42,469 bases of DNA from a virus (taxonomy: Duplodnaviria > Heunggongvirae > Uroviricota > Caudoviricetes). The stretch lies in the IMG/VR virus record IMGVR_UViG_2541047705_000011; one strand, written 5' to 3'. The notes beneath the pieces were generated by a model, which was given only the letters and a program-made list of their open reading frames with translations, made no database searches and was not told the DNA's origin. The position numbers were made by a program, and so were the translations under genes. Positions 2,697-39,674 of this stretch are shown here, in pieces. The stretch's first letter is position 1. Each line of letters opens with the position of its first letter.

Positions 2697-3087
2697 CGTC
2701 TTTTCTCCCCGGAATTAACTCGCGTGGATTATCGGAACGGTGATAGAGCCATATACCAATACGCACAGCGACAATTGCTGACACGAATGCGCCTGCAGAG
2801 AAAACAATCCCTTTTTCAAAAGAGTCCTGCGTGATGGTAGGGATCAGGCTGGCTATGCCGATAAGAATTGATGCTGCTGGTTTGTAAAAGAGAAGGCCGC
2901 AAAGAAAGCTGAGCATCGACAGGAGCACCCGGCGACGGATGGGGTACTCTACTGCAGAGGTAACAAAAATTACCGCCCCAGCCAAAGCCCCTAAAGCAAC
3001 CTCCGGAGGGACACCTGCAATAACTGCAGCAAGAGAACCAAAACTAAGCAACTGATTTAATTGCTCACTTGTTACTTGAGCAGACAT
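2683..3087 (-). CDS. Holin
   Basis: 134 aa, multiple TM segments, charged C-terminus; RBS AGGAG 6 nt upstream; first gene of lysis cassette. Confidence 0.65.
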   Translation of the reverse strand: MSAQVTSEQLNQLLSFGSLAAVIAGVPPEVALGALAGAVIFVTSAVEYPIRRRVLLSMLSFLCGLLFYKPAASILIGIASLIPTITQDSFEKGIVFSAGAFVSAIVAVRIGIWLYHRSDNPRELIPGRKDDGNA

Positions 3088-3159: not shown

Positions 3160-3368
3160 ATCATTATTGTTCCATATCATATATCTCAATAAAAGTACTA
3201 ATGATTTTACAGAACGAGCCAGCAGAGTGGGGGCAGTTGTACAGGAACCATAGACTTAATTTTGTATTTAATAATGCTATGGTGTAATAAACCTGAACAT
3301 GTATTTAAAATACGTACTGATTCATGATAGAATTCAAAGATAACTTTTCACCAACTCCGTTTTTGATA

Positions 3369-3395
3369 CCCGCAATATTTTGCGGGCTTTTTTTT
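3369..3395 (+). terminator. Hairpin plus T8, canonical only in plus orientation, at tailspike 3' end
   Basis: CCCGCAA-TATT-TTGCGGG then C and T8; the T-run overlaps the tailspike stop codon; no plus-strand CDS upstream. Confidence 0.45.
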
Positions 3396-6300
3396 AACGT
3401 TCTTCCAGAGACTGAACCCGCTCTTTTATCTTATCCATTTCTCTGCGCTGCCATGCTGCCTCGATATAGAATAAGAGATCAGGTCTGACCCCCCATCTAG
3501 ATCCTGCTGGCGTTATTTCAACGCGCTCAATGATGTCTTCCATTACCATCACTGGATTATCATCCTCATCAACAATGATGCTCCCGTCATTATCAGTCAG
3601 CGGCATTTCCCTTTGGCCAGTAATGACGTCATCATATACTGCGGGATAATCGTCATAGCAAAGAAAGGCATAGCGGCATGTTGTGCTTTCTTCTTCCATG
3701 AGTCCGTGAGAAATAAGAACATCACGAAGTTGCTGCGCGATTACACCATGATGTATCCTCGCCCCTTCTTCCCCCTTTATAGCGACAGCGTTCAGCCATT
3801 TATAAGCGATATACCTGACGTCACCCCAGGCATCCAGCAATGCTTCGTCAGGAGAGACCGGCTCTGTCTTTAATGTTCCGTCACTGGTAACCACAGGATT
3901 GGAGCCAAGATAAACTGTCGAGAACCTGTTTCCCGGACCACCAAGAGCATTTACATTATCAAGATAAGGTTTAACATCTCCGTTCTCAAAAAGATGTTCG
4001 AGTGCGTTATATACCGCGCGACGTGGAGTACTGCTTCCGGAACCATGCAACGTTATCATTGCACCATCTGCTGAAGACGTTGTTTCACCTCCGCTAACGA
4101 TTAATCTCTGAGCGGTAACATCATCAGACGGTACTTTCTTCGCAATAATGGCGTAATTACCCTCAAGTTTGACTTCCGCGCGAACTTGTCCTGATGTACC
4201 TGCATGGACAGTCAGTGACTGGACGGCAACATCATCTGTGAAATCAACGGGTACAGGAACCGTCCTCACGCCTGACGTCGACATAAAAGTAGGAAGCGTT
4301 CTGTTAGGAGTGGCTCCGTAGACAAAATCCCTTGAAACAAATTCTTCCTGTTTAATTTTCACCCTGAAACAATACAAATCAGCCGGGTGACCATCGTGAA
4401 CATAAGGATATTTTCTGTTGTTATCCCCTATGCTCCATGGGTTTAGAAAGTCTTCCCCACCGAAAATGTAGTACAGCCAGTTGTCTTTGATACAAACTGA
4501 ACCAACACCAACCGCAGAGTTAACTATTCCGCCCTGATAAATCTGATCAGTAACATTAACCCACTCTACATTATCCAGACTCCACTCATTGACGTTAACT
4601 CTGGTCATAAATGTTCTTGGATAATTTCCTGCATAACGGTTATCAGGTTCTCCTCCTTCCCACTCACCAAATGCGCGCTCACTGCCAAAAATAATCAGCT
4701 CATCGCCAACTTTGGCAAAAGGAAGGTTTGAGTGATGAACATTATTTGGGAAGCGAAGAGAATTCCATGATGTACCTAAATCAGAGCTTCTGTGCAATGA
4801 ACTACCGGGTTGAGTACTTAATGTCCCCCTGGTCGTCAGATACAGAATGCCATCATAATATTTTACACATGGCTCAGATGCATTCGCCTCATATTCTGCA
4901 GGTATGCGTCTGCGAACAAAGCTACCAGGAGAACCGAAAGCATCAGAGAAATAGAGTATCCCAAGCTCGCGTGGACCAATATCACCATTATGGTAGCCAA
5001 CAGCAAAACTGTTATCGCTAATCGTCGCAAAACTGTGAATCTCAGTAACAGGAGTGCTTCCGTCAACAAAAGAAGGAATAGTTCCAAGACTGGTTTTTCT
5101 CCATGGTGACGAGTGAAATGATGTACCAAAACTCCAGTATCTACCCTCGTTATTCTGATCCACATCCTGGGTATTTTGCGTCGTAACTGTAAAAGTATTT
5201 TTATCAATAACAGTAGTCACCGTCATATTCCCGGTAACACCTGTAACACCAGAGTTTGAGAAGTTGACAAAATCACCAGCAAATAATCCGTGATCAGTAA
5301 TGCGAATATAAGCGACTTGCTGATTTGCTGCTTTCGTTATACCACCATAAACGCGAAGGCTGCGACTCATTGGGCGATCCCACAACTCTGCAACCTGCAG
5401 TTTATTTCCGCTCACGGTCCGCGTCTCAATTACAGCAAAAAGGCGATTTCTGACAACCCCCATACTCATGCAGTGATAGTTAACTGTGGGATAGTTTTCA
5501 TGTAAATCTGTAAGCCATTCCGGCGTTGTCCAGGTCTTCCCGTCATCTCCTGAGCGAACCCATGCAACATGGAGGTTATTTACACCATGGCGGTCTCCAG
5601 CCATAAAAGGCGCATAGATGACATTGTCATATACAAACGTTTTATCCTGCGTCCAGGCGTTGTACCACGGTGTATCTGTAATTTTAAATAACTCTCCCTG
5701 GATAAAATCTTCAGAAGCATAAAAAAGAGGCTGGCCCGGTATTCTCTCAAATAAAAAACGAGCATTTTTAAATCGACTGACATCCGGAAGAGTTGATACT
5801 TTAAAAGTAAGCCCTAATCCGTCAATTTTATAACCTGGAGATGAGGCTTCAAGGCACGCGCTTATTGCAGTGGAATCGTCATTTATACCATCACCAACAG
5901 CTCCAAAATCTTTGGGGCTAATAGCATCACGCATTTTATCCTGGAACGTTCGGTACACAGCCCCAGAACCATACTGAATAAACCAACCAAAACCACCAAC
6001 AACCCCGGCGATTGCAGCATCGACATAATTACGCATTGAGCGATTATTTACAGCGTCCTGCTCAAATGATGGATCTGCAAGGTTAGAAATTTTGTTTTGC
6101 TTTGCATCGTAATATTTTGCAAGCAAAGATGGTTTCATCAATGCACGTCTGAACCACCCAAAACATTGCTGGATCAGCATCGTCAGGTAGTCAAAGGCAT
6201 CTTCATGCACTTCGGGGAAAAATTTTCCCTGATTGCGAAGGTCTGTCTCCTGCACTACATCAAGCACACGATCTATCGTAATTCGCCATCCAGTAGCAAG

Positions 6301-6616: not shown

Positions 6617-6633
6617 ATTACCTTTCAGGTAAT
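6617..6633. promoter_or_regulatory. Operator-like palindrome ATTACC-TTTCA-GGTAAT (perfect)
   Basis: Perfect 6-bp inverted arms, 5-bp spacer; between tailspike start and the LexA-box gene. Confidence 0.6.
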
Positions 6634-35817: not shown

Positions 35818-36018
35818 TCAGCTTGAATGTTGTGGGGAGGAATTAATCATGATCTGCTTAATCTCTGCCCTGATGCGACGGTTTGATTCCATGGTGCACT
35901 CAACACAGTGTCCGTTGTAAACCCAGCGTTCACTGTCATGTCCGTGCTTACATGGTTTTCCGGTGTAGTAGCGTTTAAGTCCGCGCTTTGCGGCATCAAT
36001 ACGTGTAATGATTTCCAT
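35818..36018 (-). CDS. Small zinc-finger protein in the CII position (66 aa)
   Basis: CKHGH..x10..CVEC motif; start ATG 36018 or 36054, both with weak RBS. Confidence 0.45.
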   Translation of the reverse strand: MEIITRIDAAKRGLKRYYTGKPCKHGHDSERWVYNGHCVECTMESNRRIRAEIKQIMINSSPQHSS

Positions 36019-36097
36019 GGTAAGCCCTGTTATTAGTATTGGGATTACGGTCATTTTGTGCTGACACAAAAAAAAGATCAACCAGATTTGGTTTTTT

Positions 36098-36168: not shown

Positions 36169-36399
36169 TCATGAGTAGAAGAAGTATGCCAGTTCTGCTT
36201 TTGAGCGCAACCATTGTCTTGATTTACAGGCTTTAAAAAGCCCATTCATCAATACCTTACCTGGCATTTTGCGCTTACCTGTTAAGTGAGTCTGGATATA
36301 GTGACTCGTCGTTCCGGCTTCCTGTGCGAAGGCTTCACGCTCATCCGGAGTGAGTGCAAGCCAGTGCTTTTTGAAATCGAAATGTCCGTTATCGCTCAT
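36169..36399 (-). CDS. Cro-like HTH regulator
   Basis: 76 aa; HTH FAQEAGTTSHYIQTHLTG; divergent from CI-like gene, points toward O/P. Confidence 0.65.
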   Translation of the reverse strand: MSDNGHFDFKKHWLALTPDEREAFAQEAGTTSHYIQTHLTGKRKMPGKVLMNGLFKACKSRQWLRSKAELAYFFYS

Positions 36400-36553: not shown

Positions 36554-37138
36554 ATGAAAAGTATCCAGGACGTCCGCAGGCAAAATCTCAACGACTTGAT
36601 CGACCGTGAATTCAATGGTGTTCAGACGCGGATGGCAGAAAAACTTGGAACTCAGGCAAATCTGGTAAACCGCTGGGCTCTTGGCAAGAAGGTTATCGGC
36701 GACCAGGTTGCGCGAAAAATTGAAGCTGCCGCCAATAAACCCCGTAACTGGCTTGATATCGATCGCTCGCTTTCTCAGGAAGGTTTTCAGCCTGTCGGCC
36801 CAAGCGACATTGGTCAGCTGGCGGCTCACAACCTGGAACGCTGGATGAGCGAAAGCCGCGACCTTTCAACACAGGGAAAACTTCACCGCGCATCCGGCGT
36901 CGCCCAGGTGACAATCAGCCGCCTGTTAAACAATGAGGTCAGCGTTTCCATTTCCACCCTGGAGAATGTTGCATCCGCATTCGGGCGTCACGGATATGAA
37001 CTACTGATTCACCCGCACGACCCTGCGACTATCAACTATGACCGCTCGCGCTACGCATTGTTACCCGAAACCGAGAAAGCAAAGATCGAAAGTTACATTG
37101 AATTTGTCATCAACCAGAACGAAAAAAACAAACAATAA
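36554..37138 (+). CDS. CI-like repressor with two HTH domains and no recognisable S24 peptidase domain
   Basis: 194 aa; HTH segments TRMAEKLGTQANLVNRW and LHRASGVAQVTISRLLN; no Ser-Lys autocleavage module seen; weak SD. Confidence 0.65.
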   Translation: MKSIQDVRRQNLNDLIDREFNGVQTRMAEKLGTQANLVNRWALGKKVIGDQVARKIEAAANKPRNWLDIDRSLSQEGFQPVGPSDIGQLAAHNLERWMSESRDLSTQGKLHRASGVAQVTISRLLNNEVSVSISTLENVASAFGRHGYELLIHPHDPATINYDRSRYALLPETEKAKIESYIEFVINQNEKNKQ

Positions 37139-37160
37139 AATCATATTTTTCAGTAAGTAA

Positions 37161-37182
37161 GCCGCCTTCTGGCGGCTTTTTT
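37161..37182 (+). terminator. Rho-independent terminator after CI-like gene
   Basis: GCCGCC-TTCT-GGCGGC followed by T6. Confidence 0.8.
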
Positions 37183-37194
37183 ATTGCCTGTTCG

Positions 37195-37211
37195 ATTACC
37201 TAATGGGTAAT
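37195..37211. promoter_or_regulatory. Operator-like palindrome ATTACC-TAATG-GGTAAT (perfect)
   Basis: 19 nt upstream of the early promoter -35. Confidence 0.6.
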
Positions 37212-37229: not shown

Positions 37230-37258
37230 TTGACATCAAACCAGATACGCATAATTAT
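37230..37258 (+). promoter_or_regulatory. Early promoter for the plus-strand early operon
   Basis: -35 TTGACA, 17-bp spacer, -10 AATTAT; flanked by operator-like palindromes. Confidence 0.55.
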
Positions 37259-37273
37259 TACCTCAACGGTAAC
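37257..37273. promoter_or_regulatory. Operator-like palindrome ATTACC-TCAAC-GGTAAC
   Basis: Overlaps -10/+1 of the early promoter. Confidence 0.55.
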
Positions 37274-37291
37274 AGACCGAGGTAACAAGTT

Positions 37292-37444
37292 ATGCAGTGG
37301 AAAATCATCAACGGTTGGTACTGCGTTACTGCATGCGGATTCATGAGCTGGAAGTTCCGCACCTTACAGGAAGGCATTAAGTGGGCTTTCGTCAGCAAAG
37401 AAGCTCGCGATGTGGCCAACGATAACGAGATATGGGAGGGCTGA
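37292..37444 (+). CDS. First early-operon small protein (50 aa), Trp-rich, unknown function
   Basis: Found by reading; RBS GAGGTAA; MQWKIINGWYCVTACGFMSWKFRTLQEGIKWAFVSKEARDVANDNEIWEG; below ORF-track cutoff. Confidence 0.45.
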   Translation: MQWKIINGWYCVTACGFMSWKFRTLQEGIKWAFVSKEARDVANDNEIWEG

Positions 37445-37446
37445 TA

Positions 37447-37746
37447 ATGAAAGTTAATCAGCAGAAAAATCTTCAAAAAATCATGCTGGCATTCGACAAG
37501 GACTACCGCCTGTCAGAACAGCTATATGACCGACAAGTTGAACTGATTGAGAGCATCCGACTTCATCAACTGTCCTCAACTTTCGACGTTGTAACAGGCA
37601 AAGGCGTTCGTCAGGAAGTGCTGGAAGCAGCTAAAGACAGCCCTGAGTTCGAAGAACTGATGGATTCCTACCGGCGCGAGGCAATGGCAATTATCGCCCG
37701 CTGGGATCTGGCGGATCGGATTGATGGACAGAAGGACGCGGCATGA
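37447..37746 (+). CDS. Early-operon hypothetical protein (99 aa)
   Basis: Start trimmed to ATG 37447 (MKVNQQ); coupled to upstream stop. Confidence 0.5.
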   Translation: MKVNQQKNLQKIMLAFDKDYRLSEQLYDRQVELIESIRLHQLSSTFDVVTGKGVRQEVLEAAKDSPEFEELMDSYRREAMAIIARWDLADRIDGQKDAA

Positions 37747-38642
37747 TGCAGAACGCTGGAATCATGGATAGAACAAAATACATCGGAGGAAGCGATGTTG
37801 CAGGGATTCTTGGAATTAGCCCATGGCGCACCCCGCTTGAGGTTTATCTGGATAAGGTCCAGCCACGTGTCAAACCAGTAGACCCAAGCAAGCAGAAAGT
37901 TTTCACGCGTGGCCAGCGTATGGAGCCATACGTAATAGACCTGCTTTCTGAGGAAACAGGGATGGAAATCGTTCATCGCGGAAACCGCTATATCCACCGT
38001 GATTACGATTTTATTGCAGCTGAGATCGATGCAGAAGCAGCGTCAGGCGAGAACATTGAGATCAAAACAGTTAGTCCGTTCAAAGCCAAAGAATGGGGAG
38101 AAATCCAGACAGATGCAATTCCTGTGCATTACACGGCACAGGCCATGCACGGGTTGATGGTTACAAACAAACAGGTATGCGTTTTCGGTGTGCTTATCGG
38201 TGGCGACGACTTCCGAATCTATCGGGTTGAGCGTGATGAAGAAACTATCCAGGCGATCTTAGAAAAAGAAATCGCTTTCTGGGACCGAGTGAAAAATCTT
38301 AACCCGCCGGAAGCTACCAGCGTAAGCGATGTATCGCTGATGTTTGAGAAAGATGCCGGGACAAGTATCGAGGCTGACGGAAAGGCACTCGCACTATTCA
38401 ACGATCTACGAGACATGAAGTCACGCAGAAAATCACTGGAAGAAGAAATAGCTATATCAGAAGAGAAGCTGAAGATGTACATGCAAGAGCACTCAGTCCT
38501 GACCCTGGACGGAAAGCCGCTCTGCACATGGAAATCTCAGATCAGCAACAGATTCGACCAGAAGCTATTCCAGTCAGTACACCCTGAGTTATTCGAAAAA
38601 TTCAAAACAACAACGACACAACGCGTCTTCAGAATGAAGTAA
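37743..38642 (+). CDS. YqaJ-like recombination exonuclease
   Basis: YqaJ-type N-terminus YIGGSDVAGILGISPWRTPLEVY; adjacent to RecT. Confidence 0.8.
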   Translation: MMQNAGIMDRTKYIGGSDVAGILGISPWRTPLEVYLDKVQPRVKPVDPSKQKVFTRGQRMEPYVIDLLSEETGMEIVHRGNRYIHRDYDFIAAEIDAEAASGENIEIKTVSPFKAKEWGEIQTDAIPVHYTAQAMHGLMVTNKQVCVFGVLIGGDDFRIYRVERDEETIQAILEKEIAFWDRVKNLNPPEATSVSDVSLMFEKDAGTSIEADGKALALFNDLRDMKSRRKSLEEEIAISEEKLKMYMQEHSVLTLDGKPLCTWKSQISNRFDQKLFQSVHPELFEKFKTTTTQRVFRMK

Positions 38643-38651
38643 GGAGAAAAA

Positions 38652-39674
38652 ATGTCTATCAATGCACTTAAGGCAGCGGCTACCGGTAACCAAGTTGCAC
38701 ATCATAATGAGAAACCAACAACTCTGGCCGGACTTCTGGCAGACCCAAAAATTAAAGCTCAGATGGCTTTGGCACTTCCAAAGCACATGACAGCAGACCG
38801 TCTGGCGCGCATAGCAACCACAGAGATCCGAAAGGTTCCAAAACTTGCATCATGCGACCAAGCCAGCTTCCTGGGGGCAATTATGCAATGTGCCCAATTG
38901 GGTCTTGAACCAGGCGGAGCTCTTGGACACGCTTACCTGATACCGTTCGACAAACGCCAGAAAGTAAATGGAAGATGGGAAACCGTATCTACAGAAGCAC
39001 AGCTGATTATCGGCTATCGCGGAATGATTGACCTTGCCCGCCGCTCTGGGCAGATCCTGAGTATCTCGGCTCGTACCGTACATACAAACGACAAATTCAG
39101 CTACTCATACGGCCTGGAAGAAACGCTCGAGCATTTACCTTGCGAAACAGGTGACCGCGGAGAATTAACGCACGTTTACGCCGTTGCACGACTGAAAGAT
39201 GGCGGAGTCCAATTTGAAGTTATGAGCCGGGCAGACATTGAGAAAGTTCGTGCACTGAGCAAAGCCGGTAGCAGTGGCCCATGGGTTGATCACTTCGATG
39301 AGATGGCTAAAAAAACAGTAATTCGCCGACTATTCAAATATCTTCCTGTTTCTATTGAAATGCAGAAGGCTGTTGTTATGGATGAGCACGCTGAAGCTGG
39401 ACTTAGCCAAGATAACGCAGCTGTTATCACTGGTGAATATTCCGTAGTTGACGATGAGCGTCAACACCTGTCGCCAATTTCAGATTCAGAACGAGAAGAA
39501 GCTCGAGAATATATCATCGCGATACTTAATAGCCTGGATCCATCTGCTGAAGATGCAAAAACGATGTTCAAGCGCGCTGAAAATGAGATTAACACCATGG
39601 CTGAAAAGCTCGGTGATGAATATCACCAAAAATTCATGATGACGCTTAACGATATGCGTCCAGAATTCGAGTAA
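38652..39674 (+). CDS. RecT-family single-strand annealing protein
   Basis: RBS AAGGAG; typical RecT-family length and position after the exonuclease. Confidence 0.8.
   Translation: MSINALKAAATGNQVAHHNEKPTTLAGLLADPKIKAQMALALPKHMTADRLARIATTEIRKVPKLASCDQASFLGAIMQCAQLGLEPGGALGHAYLIPFDKRQKVNGRWETVSTEAQLIIGYRGMIDLARRSGQILSISARTVHTNDKFSYSYGLEETLEHLPCETGDRGELTHVYAVARLKDGGVQFEVMSRADIEKVRALSKAGSSGPWVDHFDEMAKKTVIRRLFKYLPVSIEMQKAVVMDEHAEAGLSQDNAAVITGEYSVVDDERQHLSPISDSEREEAREYIIAILNSLDPSAEDAKTMFKRAENEINTMAEKLGDEYHQKFMMTLNDMRPEFE

Follow-up and report, generated by a model that had tools for sequence, protein, structure and literature searches.

Organization of the locus

The early-left operon of an Escherichia coli prophage, contained in IMG/VR virus record IMGVR_UViG_2541047705_000011, begins with two small genes which are the subject of this study. 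The whole stretch of DNA that was analysed, 42,469 nucleotides long, will be referred to as the window. The prophage is phiV10/epsilon15-like (Uetakevirus), and its phage relatives are the epsilon15-like temperate podoviruses of that group. The first gene (37292–37444, plus strand) encodes a Trp-rich protein of 50 amino acids (aa) and corresponds to PhiV10p39, epsilon15 gp37, and phrog_898. The second gene (37447–37746, plus strand) corresponds to PhiV10p38, epsilon15 gp36, and phrog_856. It encodes an acidic helical protein of 99 aa with a predicted Gam fold, a putative inhibitor of RecBCD. Gam of phage lambda is a blocker of RecBCD, the host enzyme that degrades DNA ends. Downstream on the same strand are the genes for a YqaJ-type recombination exonuclease (37743–38642; PF09588, expectation value (E) 2.8e-23; phrog_434) and for the single-strand annealing protein RecT (38652–39674; PF03837, E 3.3e-57).

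The initial annotation of this DNA, made from the sequence alone, described the two genes as the first after an operator-flanked early promoter, and all of these elements have been located. The repressor gene (36554–37138), which encodes a 194-aa protein with a double helix-turn-helix, is ended by an intrinsic terminator (37159–37178, plus strand) with an 8-bp stem, 6 GC pairs, and a T run. The terminator separates the repressor gene from the early-left operon and is also annotated in phiV10. It is followed by a pL-like sigma-70 promoter (37230–37258, plus strand) formed by TTGACA, a 17-nt spacer, and AATTAT, which agrees with the consensus at 10 of 12 positions and is kept in phiV10, Tyrion, and BUCT554. 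This promoter is flanked by the repressor operator TTACC-N5-GGTAA, which is present there in two exact copies. The first, TTACCTAATGGGTAA (37196–37210), is located 5' of the -35 element, and the second, TTACCTCAACGGTAA (37258–37272), abuts the -10 element. The second operator is kept in Tyrion and BUCT554, and epsilon15 and BUCT711 have an equivalent site beside the Shine-Dalgarno sequence. In the sibling phage ZX5, overexpression of the repressor blocks lytic growth (PMC9782041). Once repression is lifted, the operator-flanked promoter would transcribe the operon in the order 50-aa gene, 99-aa gene, YqaJ exonuclease, RecT, and AlpA-type excisionase.

Both open reading frames (ORFs) are present as initially annotated, and the 50-aa protein is indeed Trp-rich, with 5 Trp in 50 residues. 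Its ORF has an ATG start with GAGG at 37279–37282, 9 nt upstream. The 99-aa ORF starts with the ATG at 37447, preceded by GGAGG at 37435–37439 within the 3' end of the upstream gene; the automatically called ORF extends back to 37432, but the Met encoded at 37447 is the start in all homologs. The 99-aa gene and the exonuclease gene overlap by their stop and start codons (ATGA, 37743–37746), so that the 99-aa gene, the exonuclease gene, and the RecT gene look translationally coupled.

Each protein matches a PHROG family end to end, the 50-aa protein phrog_898 (E 1.9e-38) and the 99-aa protein phrog_856 (E 7.2e-54), and both families are listed as having unknown function. With tblastn, the two genes have the same distribution, 36 phage records in all (16 Escherichia, 12 Salmonella, 4 Klebsiella, 3 Enterobacter, and 1 unnamed), and the gene order is constant. 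The 651 bases around both genes are 96–98% identical to phiV10 and its relatives, and the stretch with both genes has matches in 559 of 5426 complete E. coli genomes (~1 in 10). Together with the codon-position pattern of the 50-aa gene described below, the PHROG matches and the 36 phage records mark both ORFs as conserved. Judged by this conservation, both ORFs are genuine genes and not chance reading frames. Both proteins are annotated everywhere as hypothetical, the 99-aa protein in RefSeq and PHROGs and with no Pfam or NCBIfam family. Neither protein matches Pfam or NCBIfam at E ≤ 1, curated anti-restriction families included, and no paper mentioning the accession numbers of these proteins was found in the literature.

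Fold and remote homology of the 99-aa protein

The structural evidence for the 99-aa protein depends on the depth of the alignment used. A word-indexed homolog search returns close relatives only, at least 69% identical, while an exhaustive search of 1.8 billion representatives gives 32 proteins, some of which are only 31–49% identical. The AlphaFold model obtained with the shallow alignment (homologs at least 69% identical) has a predicted local distance difference test (pLDDT) score of 64 and no matches in the PDB. With the distant members added, the pLDDT reaches 92.3 and the predicted template modelling (TM) score 0.77. In the Foldseek comparison with the PDB, the top six matches are all GamS, with probabilities of 0.96–1.00 and a TM score of up to 0.77.

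Profile comparisons lead to the same family. The phrog_856 profile searched against PDB sequences matches GamS chains colinearly (E 0.065). Designer pentatricopeptide repeat proteins ranked first in the PDB profile search, but their scores are sums of sub-threshold repeats with no single significant stretch, and they have been rejected as candidates. One family member, P0085, matches the Pfam Gam family PF06064 (E 0.0042, 17.7 bits), with residues 31–94 aligned to positions 33–96 of the 98-position profile; it is the sole PF06064 match among 21 family members. The hhalign comparison with a 94-sequence Gam alignment gives a probability of 80.9% and an E of 1.2e-5 over 55 colinear columns (32–86 on 34–90). 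The real score in this comparison is 32.9, while 200 column shuffles have a mean of 11.4 (standard deviation 2.4) and a maximum of 20.9, and reversed profiles score ~15.6. Of the small early lambda, phi80, and Rac proteins that were compared with the 99-aa protein, 21 in total, lambda Gam alone stands out.

The 99-aa protein and lambda Gam or GamS (PF06064, phrog_259; PDB 2UUZ, 2UV1, and 5MBV) are similar in size, at 99 and 98 aa, and both are acidic. The 99-aa protein has an isoelectric point of 4.99, and all members of its family are acidic, with net charges of -4 to -9. The C-terminal two-thirds of the two proteins are colinear, including the G-x-[RS] loop and the [DE]-x-x-EF-[EQ]-E motif. 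The similarity extends to the genome, where both genes belong to an early-left operon under repressor control and directly precede those for an exonuclease and an annealase. On the other hand, the 99-aa protein is only 18–25% identical to lambda Gam and belongs to a separate PHROG. Its gene is also found in a Chi-rich podovirus and not in a Chi-free lambdoid phage, and its partners are a YqaJ- or RecE-type nuclease and RecT, whereas those of lambda Gam are Exo and Beta.

Other candidates for the 99-aa protein have been compared in the same way. RacC gives no hhalign signal. By sequence, phi80 GamL (phrog_1050) is also rejected, since the hhalign probability is 0.4% and the two proteins belong to separate PHROGs. 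P22 Abc2 (PF11043) is matched by neither window protein at E ≤ 1, nor by any of the 21 family members at E ≤ 10. A search for loci with P0101 as the query found nothing.

The modelled fold, the remote homology, and the gene neighbourhood described below identify the 99-aa protein as a predicted, unannotated, and very divergent member of the Gam family. Gam and GamL have been described as sharing a common fold with unrelated sequences (PMC12315714), and on the structural model the 99-aa family looks like a further sequence type of this fold. The initial annotation had proposed anti-restriction or anti-defence functions for both genes from their position alone, and had set homology to a recombination accessory factor against that proposal. 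For the 99-aa gene, such homology is what the fold and profile comparisons point to. The proposal holds for this gene in the broad sense that a Gam homolog would act against a host nuclease; the part that concerns a free-standing counter-defence gene or anti-restriction of the Ocr, Ard, or Ral type does not hold, as the gene belongs to the recombination module.

Gene neighbourhood and Mog homologs

Lambda has its genes in the order cIII, kil, gam, bet, exo. In all inspected phages and in the species-representative genomes, the 99-aa family gene is directly 5' of the exonuclease gene or separated from it by a single small ORF, and the exonuclease gene is followed by that for RecT. The species-representative genomes are six, from Scandinavium, Pseudocitrobacter, Citrobacter braakii, Klebsiella pneumoniae, C. 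werkmanii, and Candidatus Erwinia dacicola; the C. braakii locus (L109) ends inside the mog gene, before the 99-aa family gene. The exonuclease partner is of three types among the relatives, namely YqaJ, PD-(D/E)XK, and a RecE-RecT fusion. Since the 99-aa gene is kept across these nuclease types, it does not appear to be tied to one nuclease partner, which fits a target in the host. The homology between the window and phiV10 ends exactly at the end of the 99-aa gene, and this defines a mosaic joint at 37746/37747.

The genes beyond this joint differ between the phages. phiV10 carries the RecE-RecT fusion, and the window prophage has separate YqaJ and RecT genes (37743–39674), which are ~88–92% identical to prophage genes in Klebsiella pneumoniae and Ca. 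Erwinia dacicola. The third type, a PD-(D/E)XK nuclease with RecT, is found in other relatives. Some relatives have extra ORFs of 45–85 aa between the Gam-like gene and the exonuclease gene, at 3297–3551 in BUCT711, 3303–3440 in Tyrion, and 4249–4506 in L105. The wedged ORFs of BUCT711 and Tyrion have no Pfam match.

In six of the relatives, a homolog of phi80 Agt/Mog of 300–366 aa is found immediately 5' of the 99-aa family gene or its slot. The mog homologs are located at 1959–2993 in phiv142-3 (L008), 3034–3993 in L101, 2947–3993 in L105, 2893–3993 in L106, 3647–4549 in L109, and 3647–4639 in L111. In full-length matches they are 50–64% identical to phi80 Agt/Mog (E 2e-97, 8e-76, and 5e-120). 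They have conserved termini and a central stretch rich in Glu, Arg, and Ala, and no Pfam match. A gene similar to phi80 gp43 is present as well in L105 and L106. RefSeq describes phi80 Mog as an anti-toxin or modifier of Gam, and in phi80 its gene is directly 5' of gamL. In the mog-bearing elements, the 99-aa family gene fills the slot of phi80 gamL. Like the 99-aa protein, GamL is a small acidic protein encoded just 5' of annealase and exonuclease genes. The two systems differ in that their proteins have no detectable sequence similarity and the window phage has no mog gene.

Proposed mechanism and the distribution of Chi

GamS is a dimer that imitates duplex DNA on the RecB arm through its acidic surface, and one of its N-terminal helices plugs the single-strand channel of RecB (PMC5218532). 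By analogy with GamS, the 99-aa protein would most likely be an acidic helical dimer and occupy the site at which RecBCD binds DNA ends. Linear and rolling-circle phage DNA would thereby be protected, and end processing would be left to the phage exonuclease and RecT. We infer dimerization, RecBCD binding, and inhibition from this analogy. Overall, the explanation that we consider the best, and probably the correct one, is that the 99-aa protein is a Gam-like RecBCD inhibitor and the 50-aa protein is a lineage-specific early protein without an assignable function.

Several observations weigh against this explanation. The 99-aa protein of the window does not match Gam in Pfam, NCBIfam, or PHROGs at any of the thresholds reported, and even the best family member, P0085, stays below the PF06064 gathering cut-off of 25 bits. 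The N-terminal third of the 99-aa protein, which in Gam forms the RecB-channel helix, has no sequence similarity to Gam. The net charge is also smaller, at -4 compared to -10 for GamS. A further conflict comes from Chi (GCTGGTGG). The window contains 8 Chi sites, all on the minus strand (11769, 13143, 14975, 15390, 18564, 23834, 28432, and 41598), while 1.35 are expected from dinucleotide shuffles. Counted in the gene sense strand, there are 7 sites compared to 1.27 expected from codon-order shuffles (P ~0.001). In epsilon15 there are 6 sites (6443, 15391, 19262, 21457, 27803, and 27911) compared to 1.3 expected, and they all fall on the plus strand, which carries the structural genes. Chi is thus 5–6 fold over-represented in the window and in epsilon15. 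All sites are on the coding strand of structural genes or of the integrase gene, and in most cases the site is read in frame as Ala-Gly-Gly. Bobay et al. (PMC3784561) have found that Chi is usually avoided by phages with Gam or Abc2 and over-represented in those that are recombinase-positive and inhibitor-negative.

Exceptions to this pattern have been reported. Thirteen phages positive for an anti-RecBCD protein carry at least 6 Chi sites, which as a rule are not close to the Rec module (PMC12315714). Chi avoidance by phages that carry an inhibitor is a statistical tendency and not a defining rule. The Chi result lowers the confidence in a simple, complete inhibition of RecBCD by the 99-aa protein and is not a refutation of it.

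The over-representation of Chi motivates an alternative in which the 99-aa protein has the Gam fold but modulates RecBCD, acts early only, or targets another DNA-end nuclease or sensor, such as SbcCD, so that RecBCD would continue to protect or recombine phage DNA in a Chi-dependent manner. The uniform orientation of the Chi sites in the window and epsilon15 favors this alternative, as does the unlike sequence of the region that in Gam plugs the RecB channel. Lambda Gam itself has been reported to interact with SbcCD (PMC5218532). On the other hand, the nearest upstream Chi in the window is 9 kb from the recombination module, and the fold match and the common Mog partner argue for the same target as that of Gam and GamL. 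We regard modulation or retargeting as possible but unlikely, and the Gam-like inhibition of RecBCD as the preferred explanation.

The identification of the Gam fold, if correct, closes a gap in the annotation of the Uetakevirus group as a whole. For lambdoid phages, a 2025 survey distinguishes four types of anti-RecBCD protein, Gam, GamL, Abc2, and MuGam (PMC12315714), and the 99-aa family would add a sequence type to these proteins in the temperate phages of enterobacteria. Surveys that use Pfam matches to Gam and Abc2 may misclassify phages with a 99-aa family gene as recombinase-positive and inhibitor-negative. This directly concerns the association that has been reported between abundant Chi and a missing inhibitor. 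Divergent Gam proteins are also of interest for recombineering and for quinolone sensitization.

The 50-aa protein

The first 25 residues of the 50-aa protein (MQWKIINGWYCVTACG[FL]MSWKFRTL) are nearly invariant, while the C-terminal half is variable. Between the window and Klebsiella phage BUCT711, codons 1–25 show 3, 0, and 9 changes at the first, second, and third codon positions, with 8 synonymous and 2 non-synonymous changes. Among six phages with E. coli, Salmonella, Klebsiella, and Enterobacter hosts, the differences in this gene are also mainly at third codon positions. Based on this pattern of substitutions, the 50-aa protein is under clear purifying selection. A constraint at the DNA or RNA level on the start of the gene has been ruled out, since synonymous third-position changes are frequent there; the conservation thus acts on the protein and not on an overlapping DNA or RNA signal.

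In Enterobacter phage Tyrion, the record annotates a 70-aa ORF, gp39 (2754–2966, minus strand), and omits the intact 50-aa gene (2850–2999, plus strand). The gp39 ORF has probably been annotated in error, and the window has this spurious antisense ORF as well, at 37258–37476.

In the phages examined and in those species-representative genomes that have it, the 50-aa gene is always first after the repressor and the promoter. The mog gene or other inserted genes are located between the 50-aa gene and the Gam-like gene, and in L106 the 4 kb upstream of the Gam-like gene contain no 50-aa gene. The insertions and L106 indicate that the 50-aa gene is tied to the immunity region and its promoter and not to gam. 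The N-terminus of the 50-aa protein remains nearly constant while the adjacent repressor falls to ~41% identity and the Gam-like protein to ~48%. This difference suggests a conserved host target for the 50-aa protein.

No known family accounts for the 50-aa protein in the comparisons made. None of the Pfam and NCBIfam families and no PDB sequence is similar to it. A lipoprotein or spanin-like function has been considered for the lipobox-like V-T-A-C15 and rejected; C15 is a Ser in the L091/L097 type, and the segment before C15 is short and weakly hydrophobic, with a grand average of hydropathicity of -0.29. Comparison with Ral and the small Rac proteins (Ral, RalR, KilR, YdaE, YdaF, YdaG, and RacC) gives no signal. 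Kil has been rejected for lack of similarity to lambda Kil (PF06301) and phi80 Kil. CIII has a likeness by eye (MQ[WY]xI..GW ... RxLx[ED]G), but its hhalign probability is 0.5%, at the upper end of the 0.1–0.5% obtained with lambda Kil, CIII, and Ral. Based on these observations, the 50-aa protein is a real early protein specific to the epsilon15-like lineage, without an assignable function, and a well-defined, strongly constrained orphan.

The position of the gene has suggested a comparison with the small early-left genes of lambdoid phages. The 50-aa protein may be a positional analogue of Kil, which blocks FtsZ and cell division, or of CIII, which inhibits the FtsH protease, and thus a modulator of host physiology and not a counter-defence protein. 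Lambda cIII (54 aa) and kil (47 aa) are directly 5' of gam, small kil genes also precede the recombination genes of phi80 and Rac, and the 50-aa protein is of similar size. The invariance of its N-terminus from Escherichia to Erwinia fits a universally conserved host target. However, the protein has no sequence or profile similarity to these proteins, with profile probabilities below 5% for lambda Kil, CIII, and Ral, phi80 Kil, and Rac KilR, YdaE, YdaF, and YdaG, and the likeness to CIII is not supported by hhalign. The gene also differs from the lambdoid small early-left genes in that it is the very first after the promoter, with no N-type antiterminator gene before it. Position alone is weak evidence, and we hold a Kil- or CIII-like role to be doubtful.

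The anti-defence proposal of the initial annotation must be weighed for both proteins. It would make them dedicated anti-restriction or anti-defence factors, either of the Ocr, Ard, or Ral type or directed against newer systems, which are placed first in order to be made first. The first position after the early promoter and the extremely conserved N-terminus of the 50-aa protein, which is consistent with a conserved host target, agree with this proposal, and Gam-type proteins count as inhibitors of a host anti-phage nuclease. However, the insertion of mog and gp43-like genes and the missing 50-aa gene of L106 tie the 99-aa gene to the recombination module and not to the promoter. Neither protein resembles Ral or matches the curated anti-restriction families, and both genes are core genes of the lineage and not the variable accessory genes usual for counter-defence. 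A dedicated anti-defence function of both proteins is therefore very unlikely, more so than the other alternatives considered here. For the 50-aa gene taken by itself, the proposal is neither supported nor refuted, and a host-directed early role, of the Kil or CIII type or in counter-defence, is the best guess but no more than a guess.

Two more speculative explanations can be given. In the first, the Gam-fold protein may coexist with functional, correctly oriented Chi because it leaves some RecBCD activity, through an action that is time-limited, partial, or directed at a different end-processing enzyme. In the second, the invariant N-terminus of the 50-aa protein may define a new host-directed early peptide, for takeover or counter-defence, with a target conserved across the Enterobacterales. 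We consider these explanations improbable. If the first is true, the Gam scaffold would be employed in a way that is new.

Genome layout and repressor sites

The annotations of phiV10 and E. coli VE-T9 show the same arrangement of the region. The replication genes are on the minus strand, and the plus strand carries the repressor, the terminator, the 50-aa and 99-aa hypothetical proteins, the exonuclease, RecT, an AlpA-type excisionase, more small genes, and a methylase. The integrase gene is located after this block, on the minus strand. In the window, the divergent rightward operon on the minus strand has its first genes at 36169–36399 and 35818–36081. The gene at 36169–36399 encodes a 76-aa protein that matches the transcriptional repressor family phrog_35 and is presumably Cro-like. 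The ORF at 35818–36081 (87 aa; 86 residues in the Pfam scan) has no family match.

The TTACC-N5-GGTAA palindrome is found at 13 sites in the window with at most one mismatch, compared to 0.82 expected. The sites are located at 6618, 7738, 7831, 8877, 27321, 30511, 30529, 34091, 34153, 36436, 36484, 37196, and 37258, and are thus scattered across the prophage, also outside the immunity region. Since the sites are not confined to the immunity region, a single repressor appears to control several scattered promoters. The RefSeq record of epsilon15 has annotated repressor-binding sites at equivalent places and similarly scattered through the genome.

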